Source: Escherichia coli (GTDB lineage: Bacteria > Pseudomonadota > Gammaproteobacteria > Enterobacterales > Enterobacteriaceae). From it: a stretch of DNA of 64,000 nucleotides. Every line of letters begins with the position of its first letter. The first letter of the stretch is position 1. The position numbers were made by a program. Where the stretch lies: NCBI RefSeq assembly GCF_045037415.1, contig NZ_CP173438.1; one strand, given 5' to 3'. Positions 6,001 to 9,000 of the stretch are shown piece by piece.

Positions 6001-9000
6001 TTGTCCGGCTGGACAATGTTACCGATAACAGTTACCCGTAACATTTTTAATTCTTGTATTGTGGGGGCACCACTTTGAGCACGACTAACCATGATCACCA
6101 CATTTACGTCTTGATGGGCGTATCGGGCAGCGGCAAATCTGCGGTCGCCAGTGAAGTGGCGCATCAACTTCATGCCGCGTTTCTTGATGGCGATTTCCTC
6201 CATCCGCGCTGCAATATCGAAAAAATGGCGTCTGGCGAACCGCTGAATGACGACGATCGCAAACCGTGGTTGCAGGCGCTGAACGACGCCGCGTTTGCTA
6301 TGCAGCGCACCAATAAAGTATCGCTGATCGTCTGTTCTGCACTGAAAAAACACTATCGCGACTTGCTGCGTGAAGGTAATCCTAATCTCTCTTTCATCTA
6401 CCTGAAAGGCGATTTTGATGTGATTGAAAGCCGCCTGAAAGCGCGCAAAGGCCATTTCTTTAAAACCCAAATGTTGGTGACGCAGTTTGAAACGCTGCAG
6501 GAGCCGGGTGCGGACGAAACCGATGTACTGGTGGTGGATATTGATCAACCGCTGGAAGGTGTTGTGGCAAGCACCATTGAGGTTATTAAAAAAGGCAAAT
6601 AAGTAGTGACTACATTAACGCTTGTTTTAACAGCAGTAGGGTCTGTTTTACTGCTGCTGTTTTTAGTCATGAAGGCGCGTATGCACGCTTTCCTGGCTTT
6701 AATGGTGGTGTCCATGGGGGCTGGCCTTTTTTCCGGTATGCCGCTCGATAAAATCGCAGCGACGATGGAAAAAGGGATGGGAGGCACCCTCGGCTTCCTG
6801 GCGGTGGTTGTCGCCCTGGGAGCCATGTTTGGTAAGATCTTACATGAAACCGGCGCGGTCGATCAGATTGCCGTCAAAATGCTCAAATCCTTCGGTCACA
6901 GCCGCGTGCATTATGCCATCGGCCTTGCGGGGCTGGTTTGTGCGCTACCGCTGTTCTTTGAAGTGGCGATTGTTCTGCTGATTAGCGTTGCTTTCTCAAT
7001 GGCGCGCCACACCGGCACGAACCTGGTGAAGCTGGTAATCCCATTATTCGCCGGCGTGGCGGCAGCGGCTGCGTTCCTGGTGCCTGGGCCAGCGCCAATG
7101 CTGCTGGCATCGCAGATGAACGCCGACTTTGGCTGGATGATCCTGATTGGCCTGTGCGCGGCAATTCCGGGAATGATTATTGCCGGGCCGCTGTGGGGTA
7201 ATTTCATCAGCCGCTACGTGGAGTTGCATATTCCTGACGACATCAGCGAACCGCATCTCGGCGAAGGCAAAATGCCGTCCTTCGGATTCAGCCTGTCGCT
7301 GATCCTGTTGCCACTGGTGCTGGTGGGGCTGAAAACCATTGCCGCGCGTTTTGTGCCAGAAGGTTCTACCGCTTACGAATGGTTCGAGTTTATTGGTCAT
7401 CCGTTTACCGCGATTCTGGTTGCTTGCCTGGTGGCGATTTACGGTCTGGCAATGCGTCAGGGTATGCCAAAAGACAAAGTGATGGAGATTTGCGGTCACG
7501 CGCTGCAACCGGCGGGGATCATTCTGCTGGTGATTGGTGCGGGCGGCGTGTTCAAACAGGTGCTGGTTGACTCTGGTGTCGGTCCGGCACTGGGCGAAGC
7601 GTTAACCGGCATGGGCCTGCCGATTGCCATCACCTGCTTCGTGCTGGCAGCTGCAGTGCGCATCATTCAGGGTTCTGCTACCGTTGCCTGTTTAACGGCG
7701 GTGGGATTGGTAATGCCGGTCATTGAACAACTGAACTACTCCGGTGCGCAAATGGCGGCACTGTCGATTTGTATCGCCGGTGGTTCGATTGTTGTCAGCC
7801 ACGTTAACGACGCGGGTTTCTGGTTGTTCGGTAAATTTACCGGCGCGACCGAAGCCGAAACGCTTAAAACCTGGACCATGATGGAAACCATCCTCGGCAC
7901 TGTCGGTGCCATCGTTGGGATGATTGCGTTCCAGCTGTTGAGTTAATTACTGCGACAAATTACTGCGAGCTTGCTCGCAGTAATTCATTTCTCTTTTCTC
8001 CTGTCTTCATCTTTTTGATCTCTCTCGCAAAAAGACCGGAACATTATCCGTTCTAATCACTGTGTTAACGGACGAGGGAGAAGATGATGGAGAAACACGG
8101 AGCTGAATTGCTGTTACAGCGGATGTTAAGTAACACCAGCGCTACTTTCAGGGAAGGGCAATGGGAAGCTATAGATGCGGTGGTTAATCAGCGGCGAAAA
8201 CTACTGGTTGTACAGCGCACCGGCTGGGGGAAAAGTGCCGTGTACTTCATCGCCAGTAAAATCTTCCGCGATCGCGGCGCTGGCCCGACAATTATCATCT
8301 CTCCTTTGCTTGCCCTGATGCGTAACCAGGTTGCCGCCGCTGAACGGTTAGGTATTACGGCTGAAACGTTGAATTCTACAAACAGGGAAGAATGGCAGCG
8401 CATTAGCGATAAGTTGCTGCAAGGTGGCGTAGATTGTCTGCTGATTTCACCTGAACGGTTGGCGAATCAGGATTTTCTTGAAACGGTTTTATATCCAGTC
8501 GCTGACCGCATCGGTTTACTGGTGGTCGATGAGGCGCACTGCATCTCTGATTGGGGCCACGATTTCCGCCCGGATTACCGACGTATATTAGATATTTTGC
8601 GCCAACTGCCTGCGAATACCCCTATTCTGGGTACAACCGCGACAGCGAATAACCGTGTCGTTGAGGATATCCGTCAGCAATTGGGTGACATTGTGATTCA
8701 GCGTGGAACGCTGGCTCGCGAAAGTTTGGCGCTTGATGCCTTAGTCTTAGGAGAACAGTCATCCCGTCTGGCATGGTTAGCAACGGTTATCCCTCAGTTT
8801 TCCAAATCGGGAATTGTTTATACCCTGACGACTCGCGATGCTGAACTTGTCGCCGAGTGGTTAAGGAAAAATGGTATCAGTGCATTTGCTTATTACAGCG
8901 GCGTGACTTGTGAAGGTGCGGAAGATTCTAATACTGCCAGGGAGTATCTGGAGCAGGCACTGCTGGCAAATAAAATCAAAGTGCTGGTCGCGACGACGGC

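Follow-up and report, generated by a model that had tools for sequence, protein, structure and literature searches.

Translational coupling is known for adjacent genes in which the stop codon of one overlaps or abuts the start codon of the next, as in the pairs trpE-trpD, trpB-trpA and galT-galK. Expression can also be limited at the start codon itself, as for the Escherichia coli genes cya (UUG) and lacI (GUG), or be set at unequal levels along an operon by a partial terminator, with rplL-rpoB as an example. The closest described system to the one considered here is the gntRKU (GntI) locus of E. coli, for which work by Tong et al. in 1996 and Izu et al. in 1997 reportedly described a 3-bp spacing between gntK and gntU. 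The same work is said to have found separate gntK and gntKU transcripts, with a partial terminator at the beginning of gntU.

We analysed a stretch of 64,000 nucleotides from E. coli (contig NZ_CP173438.1 of assembly GCF_045037415.1), hereafter the window, in which positions 4941-7946 are the gntR-gntK-gntU locus (Table 1). A 901-nt query spanning the start-codon region is 100% identical to several complete genomes, SK1144 among them, and the region was found in 5,424 of 5,426 complete E. coli genomes, where its features are always named gntR, gntK and gntU. According to the RefSeq annotation, the genes, their order and their coordinates are the same as in the GntI locus of E. coli K-12, and we see no substantive difference between the two. 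The strain analysed here carries Cys46 in GntK and has a PsyrTA pair inserted downstream of gntU. The cysteine is also the single difference (R46C) between this GntK and the chain of PDB entry 1KNQ, to which residues 1-175 match residues 1-175 with E = 1.3e-114. A search of positions 5850-8100 against Rfam gave no meaningful match; isrG alone came up, scoring 14 bits where the gathering score is 100.

Public annotation already covers the start codons, the 3-nt junction and the layout of the operon, at a locus that was characterised in the 1990s. Our literature search found no discussion of the gntK or gntU start codons, or of an attenuator in gntU. Taken as a whole, the locus is very likely an ordinary, annotated gntKU operon with starts at UUG 6075 and GUG 6606, in which both proteins would be made at sub-maximal rates, translation of gntU would be coupled to that of gntK, and a hairpin would attenuate gntU. 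For the comparative part of the work we used orthologous Enterobacteriaceae loci from different species, namely the best 80 of 295 matches, with GntK identities of 90-99%; counts are given as n = 81 loci, and we refer to this sample below as the best-80 set.

Table 1. Features of the gntRKU region, and the gntU paralogue gntT, with their positions in the 64,000-nt window
Feature	Position	Strand	Description	Basis
gntR	4941..5936	+	gluconate operon repressor, ATG start	RefSeq annotation of identical SK1144 sequence; ORF list
Conserved block upstream of gntK	6015..6042	+	highly conserved, ATGTTACCGATAACAGTTACCCGTAACA	at least 95% column identity, 81 loci (best 80 of 295)
Spacer	6043..6062	+	variable length, unconserved; contains in-frame TTG 6054	mean identity 49%, gaps in at least 20% of loci (best 80 of 295)
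gntK Shine-Dalgarno	6063..6067	+	GGGGG, 7 nt before TTG	anti-SD duplex -8.4 kcal/mol
gntK	6075..6602	+	gluconokinase, 175 aa, TTG start 6075-6077, TAA stop 6600-6602	RefSeq CDS
gntU Shine-Dalgarno-like motif	6592..6595	+	weak AAGG within last gntK codons, 10 nt upstream	duplex -3.2 kcal/mol
gntU	6606..7946	+	low-affinity gluconate transporter, 446 aa, GTG start 6606-6608	RefSeq CDS
Terminator-like hairpin in gntU	6629..6664	+	stems 6629-6639 and 6651-6661, T5 run 6660-6664; gntU codons 8-20	terminator scan, MFE fold
Terminator-like hairpin 3' of gntU stop	7958..7985	+	12-bp stem, then T-rich tail	terminator scan
gntT	38536-39849	-	GntU paralogue, ATG start	same window

Three lines of evidence agree in placing the gntK start at TTG 6075, as the sequence-only reading had proposed: the RefSeq coordinates, the 175-residue chain of PDB 1KNQ, which begins MSTTNHDHH and is that of a cloned construct, not a native N-terminus, and the comparison of 80 loci (best 80 of 295). 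In the alignment of orthologous N-termini, codon periodicity begins exactly at this TTG. Over the interval from -110 to +60 in the best-80 set, identity at codon positions 1, 2 and 3 is 97.5, 98.9 and 76% from the TTG onward, while the three phases upstream are 55, 60 and 57% identical and show no periodicity. The homologous codon is TTG in 78 of the 81 loci and ATG in three (Buttiauxella sp., Yokenella regensburgei and Trabulsiella odontotermitis; best 80 of 295), and the occurrence of ATG at precisely this position in three genera is strong evidence for the start site. The Shine-Dalgarno sequence ahead of it is among the stronger ones in the window, its duplex energy falling near the 10th percentile of the 45 CDS, and a purine-rich counterpart is present at -11/-12 in 78 of 81 loci of the best-80 set, with a median of -8.4 kcal/mol. 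Within E. coli, positions 6055-6095 are identical in 5,416 of 5,424 genomes.

One premise of the sequence-only reading has to be corrected. It had located the first in-frame ATG of gntK upstream of the start, at 6054; that position holds a TTG. Moreover, no in-frame ATG is possible upstream, since the frame is closed by a TAA at 6048 (and by another at 6039). The first in-frame ATG instead lies downstream at 6114, where it forms codon 14 and directly precedes the P-loop GVSGSGKS; the remaining ATGs between gntR and position 6130 (5982, 6016 and 6091) are all out of the gntK frame. The conclusion drawn about the starts is unaffected by this error.

The TTG at 6054 nevertheless deserves to be weighed as a start in its own right, as initiation there would give a 182-aa protein with the N-terminal extension MYCGGTT. 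Past the TAA at 6048 it is the earliest start-type codon, the mechanical ORF list begins with it, and an in-frame TTG at -21 is shared by E. coli and some close relatives. However, the codon sits in the gap-rich spacer, where identity is 49% and codon periodicity is absent, and it has no Shine-Dalgarno sequence, the anti-SD duplex being +0.6 kcal/mol before 6054 and +1.2 kcal/mol before 6114, as against -8.4 kcal/mol before 6075. In many species of the best-80 set the upstream region either lacks an in-frame start or carries one elsewhere, and both RefSeq and the PDB sequence use 6075. We therefore consider translation from 6054 very improbable. The conserved block on the far side of the spacer is presumed to be the GntR operator region.

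For gntU, the proposed start at GTG 6606, 3 nt after the gntK stop, is borne out by the codons as read directly and by the RefSeq CDS at 6606..7946. The gntU frame is closed by the gntK stop at 6600 in the window; in each of the 81 loci a stop closes it between 3 and 27 nt ahead of the start, and the intervening codons include no further ATG, GTG or TTG (best 80 of 295). The start codon is GTG in 62 loci of this set, TTG in 19 and ATG in none of the 81. It had also been claimed that the first in-frame ATG falls inside the membrane domain, and this holds: it is found at 6669, codon 22, within the first hydrophobic segment, and is likewise codon 22 in all but one of the 81 loci in the best-80 set. 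Residues 2-21 of GntU are 99-100% conserved across the best-80 set and are written with several synonymous codons per site, including five leucine codons at residue 6, which argues that this stretch is translated. In the paralogue GntT, M1 aligns to L4 of GntU, and the GntT N-terminus covers GntU residues 4-29. Positions 6592-6632 are identical in 5,388 of 5,424 E. coli genomes.

These observations also bear on the possibility that the first in-frame ATGs, at 6114 for gntK and 6669 for gntU, are the true starts, with the conserved codons upstream of them forming an untranslated leader. ATG is by far the commonest start codon, used by 83% of E. coli genes and by 41 of the 45 annotated CDS in the window. 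Against this, both 6075-6114 and 6606-6669 show conservation of the protein type, with about 98% identity at codon positions 1 and 2 as against 76% at the third, and invariant residues upstream of the ATGs are written with several different synonymous codons. Neither 6114 (+1.2 kcal/mol) nor 6669 (+1.0 kcal/mol) is preceded by a Shine-Dalgarno sequence, the solved GntK chain includes residues 1-13, and the alignment of the GntT N-terminus extends over GntU residues 4-29. Starts at these ATGs are thus extremely improbable. The comparative evidence indicates that gntK is translated from UUG 6075 and gntU from GUG 6606, and that both starts are true as annotated. Automated ORF calling would misplace the starts of gntK and gntU if it began at the earliest start-type codon (6054) or at the first ATG. 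Beyond annotation quality, the matter is of little importance.

Translation from these codons predicts the N-terminal peptides (M)STTNHDHHIYVLMGVSGSGK for GntK and fMTTLTLVL for GntU. Neither gene has an entry in the supplementary data of a 2026 N-terminomics study or of a tetracycline initiation-site profiling study; the likely reason is repression of the operon when gluconate is absent.

The junction between the two genes is tight. A 3-nt spacer, GTA, separates the TAA at 6600-6602 from the GTG at 6606, and as a consequence gntK and gntU happen to share one reading frame. Several spacings occur across the loci: the stop-start distance is -4 in 23 loci, -1 in 25, +3 in 26 and +12 to +18 in seven (n = 81; best 80 of 295), such that 74 of 81 loci in that set have a distance of -4, -1 or +3 and none exceeds 18 nt. 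The only recognisable ribosome-binding signal of gntU is the AAGG motif within the end of gntK, whose duplex energy of -3.2 kcal/mol places it in the lowest quartile of the window for strength; the median across the 81 loci of the best-80 set is -4.4 kcal/mol. Weak as the motif is, all 81 loci carry an AGG at -10 to -13 relative to the start of gntU (best 80 of 295). In seven loci this AGG lies 3' of the gntK stop, and its conservation therefore reflects a ribosome-binding role and not the coding of gntK.

It is plausible that translation of gntU is coupled to that of gntK, as the geometry and the weak Shine-Dalgarno sequence fit a classic termination-reinitiation layout. Like trpE-trpD, trpB-trpA and galT-galK, gntK and gntU are co-directional and have a tight stop-start arrangement, and the weak gntU Shine-Dalgarno motif lies inside the upstream gene. 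Unlike in those pairs, the restart codon of gntU is GUG or UUG, not AUG, and the coupling is putative.

A second feature of the gntU 5' end, one that the sequence-only reading did not include, is a terminator-like hairpin within the coding sequence; it makes the more concrete attenuation signal at this locus a transcriptional one. The hairpin has an 11-bp stem and a predicted free energy of -16.1 kcal/mol for the 35-nt segment, followed by T5. Both the hairpin, at -8 kcal/mol or below, and the T5 run are intact in 77 of 81 loci; the exceptions, which have lost the structure, are two lineages of Salmonella, Intestinirhabdus and Kosakonia cowanii (all among the best 80 of 295). Loop codons vary freely in the best-80 set, while GCA10, CTG17, TTT19 and TTA20, in the stem and T run, are almost invariant. 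When the same peptide is recoded at random with synonymous codons, only 0.2% of the recodings match the stability of the hairpin together with the T5 run. As the hairpin sits in coding sequence, its conservation is confounded with constraint on the protein. The stems vary too little for covariation to be informative: in the best-80 set 93% of cells are paired, with shuffles equalling the observed pairing, and no compensatory double substitutions occur in these nearly invariant stems (best 80 of 295). The RNA fold of the wider region 6585-6680 is not unusually stable overall (z = -1.46), and the 3'-end mapping supplements of an eLife 2021 study contain no gntK or gntU entry.

The hairpin is probably an intra-operon attenuator that lowers expression of gntU at the level of the transcript. 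The element at 6629-6664 would correspond to the gntK/gntKU attenuator reportedly described in 1996 by Tong et al. and in 1997 by Izu et al. It resembles the rplL-rpoB attenuator in consisting of a stem-loop and T run that separates the main coding parts of two genes, one strongly and the other weakly expressed, and differs from it in lying inside the downstream ORF, at gntU codons 8-20, and not in an intergenic spacer. Being inside an ORF, the hairpin is also read by ribosomes. The position of the terminator, within the downstream ORF and 23 nt past a weak start codon, is the sole feature of the locus that we would call mildly unusual.

Together, these elements suggest a scheme for the expression of the operon. 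In reporter assays, GUG and UUG initiate at 10-100% of the rate of AUG (bioRxiv 10.1101/063800). With non-AUG starts being less efficient than AUG, GntK and GntU would both be made at sub-maximal rates. For gntK, a strong GGGGG Shine-Dalgarno sequence is paired with a weak UUG codon; for gntU, the weak AAGG in the end of gntK is the only ribosome-binding signal, and its translation would probably rely in part on ribosomes that have just finished gntK, through termination-reinitiation. A fraction of transcripts would probably end at the hairpin, tuning gntU down further, and the net effect would be that one promoter yields more of the kinase than of the membrane transporter. The combination at gntK of UUG with a functional Shine-Dalgarno sequence (-8.4 kcal/mol) is like that of cya (UUG) and lacI (GUG), where a weak start codon is likewise paired with a functional one. 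The limiting role of the start codon, unlike in those two genes, is only inferred for gntK and gntU, and our literature search found no start-codon swap experiment for either. Read in this manner, gntKU neatly illustrates how expression can be tuned in layers within a single operon, through non-ATG starts, a tight junction, a weak ribosome-binding site and a terminator written in synonymous codons.

A more integrated model is conceivable, in which the weak gntU start and the terminator 23 nt downstream act as one translation-gated attenuator. Ribosomes released at 6600-6602 would be too far upstream to cover the hairpin, which begins at 6629, and only quick re-initiation at the GUG or UUG, followed by translation of some 5-8 codons, would melt the hairpin and allow read-through by RNA polymerase. 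The non-AUG start and weak Shine-Dalgarno sequence would then have been kept so that termination stays efficient. If this were true, a single initiation event would set both the ratio of gntKU to gntK transcripts and the synthesis of GntU. The four loci without the hairpin keep a GTG gntU start, and the 19 TTG loci retain the hairpin (best 80 of 295); these comparative data appear neutral toward the model, neither supporting nor excluding it, and overall we think it unlikely. The gntKU junction could serve as a test case for the interplay of translation initiation and intragenic termination.

Whether the weak start codons are themselves maintained by selection is a separate matter. We consider such selection at gntK and gntU plausible. 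The competing explanation accepts the starts as annotated and holds that the non-ATG codons carry no regulatory significance and have simply persisted as variants that are neutral or close to it, with their adjacency a coincidence; this is possible, if somewhat doubtful. A first baseline for strong selection on the gntK TTG, in which T was kept in 38% of cases on average at 66 fourfold T sites, as against 96% at the start, was discarded as unfair, since the start would be lost on a change of T to C. When transversions alone are counted, the first T of the gntK TTG is matched in conservation by 13 of the 66 fourfold T sites, so that its conservation is not exceptional, and the lack of A at the gntU start is not exceptional either, as A is never seen at 35 of 133 fourfold G sites (both in the best-80 set). 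Selection for weak start codons is accordingly not demonstrated by these baselines. Neutrality is also favoured by the three genera that have switched gntK to ATG in a context without obvious change. Pointing the other way, both starts stay non-ATG across about 80 species (best 80 of 295; gntK is ATG in three) even though some 43% of fourfold positions differ from E. coli over the same range of species, and gntU in this set toggles between GTG and TTG without ever becoming ATG. The co-occurrence of a weak start, a weak Shine-Dalgarno sequence, a tight junction and a terminator with non-random codons further suggests a concerted design for low expression.

The adjacency of the two non-ATG starts is more simply addressed. 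In E. coli, AUG, GUG and UUG start 83, 14 and 3% of genes (bioRxiv 10.1101/063800), such that about 17% use GTG or TTG. By our own arithmetic, an ordered TTG-then-GTG pair of neighbours has a probability of about 0.4%, corresponding to about 18 such pairs in a genome of about 4,300 genes, a number that fits the neutral explanation. Within the window, four annotated CDS do not start with ATG: gntK (TTG), gntU and insQ (both GTG) and a gene of the PstS family whose annotated start is ATA. Again by our own arithmetic, two or more of four non-ATG CDS would be neighbours with a probability of about 25%, and together with the expected number of pairs per genome this makes the succession of a TTG and a GTG start at gntK and gntU unremarkable.

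The intragenic gntU hairpin, a terminator-like stem-loop followed by five T residues, is missing as a hairpin, as a T run or as both in four of the 81 Enterobacteriaceae gnt loci, namely those of Salmonella diarizonae/arizonae (L007 and L008) and of Intestinirhabdus and Kosakonia cowanii (L021 and L080). The altered sequence in these lineages comprises an ACCGCCG stem and a TTTCT run (alignment A1, columns 24-59), and in all four gntU still starts with GTG, which overlaps the preceding stop codon in the 4-nt sequence GTGA. The same window carries a paralogue of gntU, the high-affinity gluconate transporter gene gntT, which starts with ATG and has the stronger Shine-Dalgarno match (-7.2 kcal/mol versus -3.2 kcal/mol for gntU). 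Within GntK itself, codon 46 (window 6210-6212) encodes Cys, as opposed to Arg in the K-12 protein of PDB 1KNQ, changing the local motif from HPRR to HPRC.

Downstream, gntU is separated from yhgN by a two-gene insertion that K-12 is not known to carry. Its genes, a RecQ-family helicase and a DprA-like protein, overlap by 94 nt. In PADLOC the helicase matches PsyrT over its full length (1065 bits), as the DprA-like protein does PsyrA (E = 1.9e-202); PsyrT and PsyrA together make up a toxin-antitoxin/anti-phage defence pair. Identity of the window to the annotated E. coli strain SK1144 is unbroken through 12171; an indel at 12172, just 5' of asd, offsets the RefSeq coordinates by 1 nt beyond that point.

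Between glgP and glpD lies a three-gene cluster whose first gene, that of the PstS-family/PBP_like_2 protein, has an ATA start codon (23086) in the RefSeq annotation, and this start merits scrutiny above those of the gnt genes. Neither of the hypothetical proteins encoded downstream of it has a match in Pfam or PADLOC.

Coordinates of additional features in the window
Feature	Position	Strand
gntU-yhgN insertion	8087-11385	+
RecQ-family helicase (first gene)	8087-10183	+
DprA-like protein (second gene)	10090-11385	+
glgP-glpD cluster	23086-26069	+
PstS-family/PBP_like_2 protein	from 23086	+
Hypothetical protein	24697-25461	+
Hypothetical protein	25467-26069	+
rtcR and rtcA remnants	about 29778-30565	
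gntT	38536-39849	-
IS200/IS605-type remnant	55335-56748	

The annotation lists what is left of rtcR (sigma-54-dependent regulator) and rtcA (RNA 3'-phosphate cyclase) as truncated pseudogenes, implying that the rtc locus was deleted in the lineage of this strain. In the IS200/IS605-type remnant, a truncated transposase pseudogene adjoins an insQ/TnpB-family gene that, like gntU, has a GTG start.
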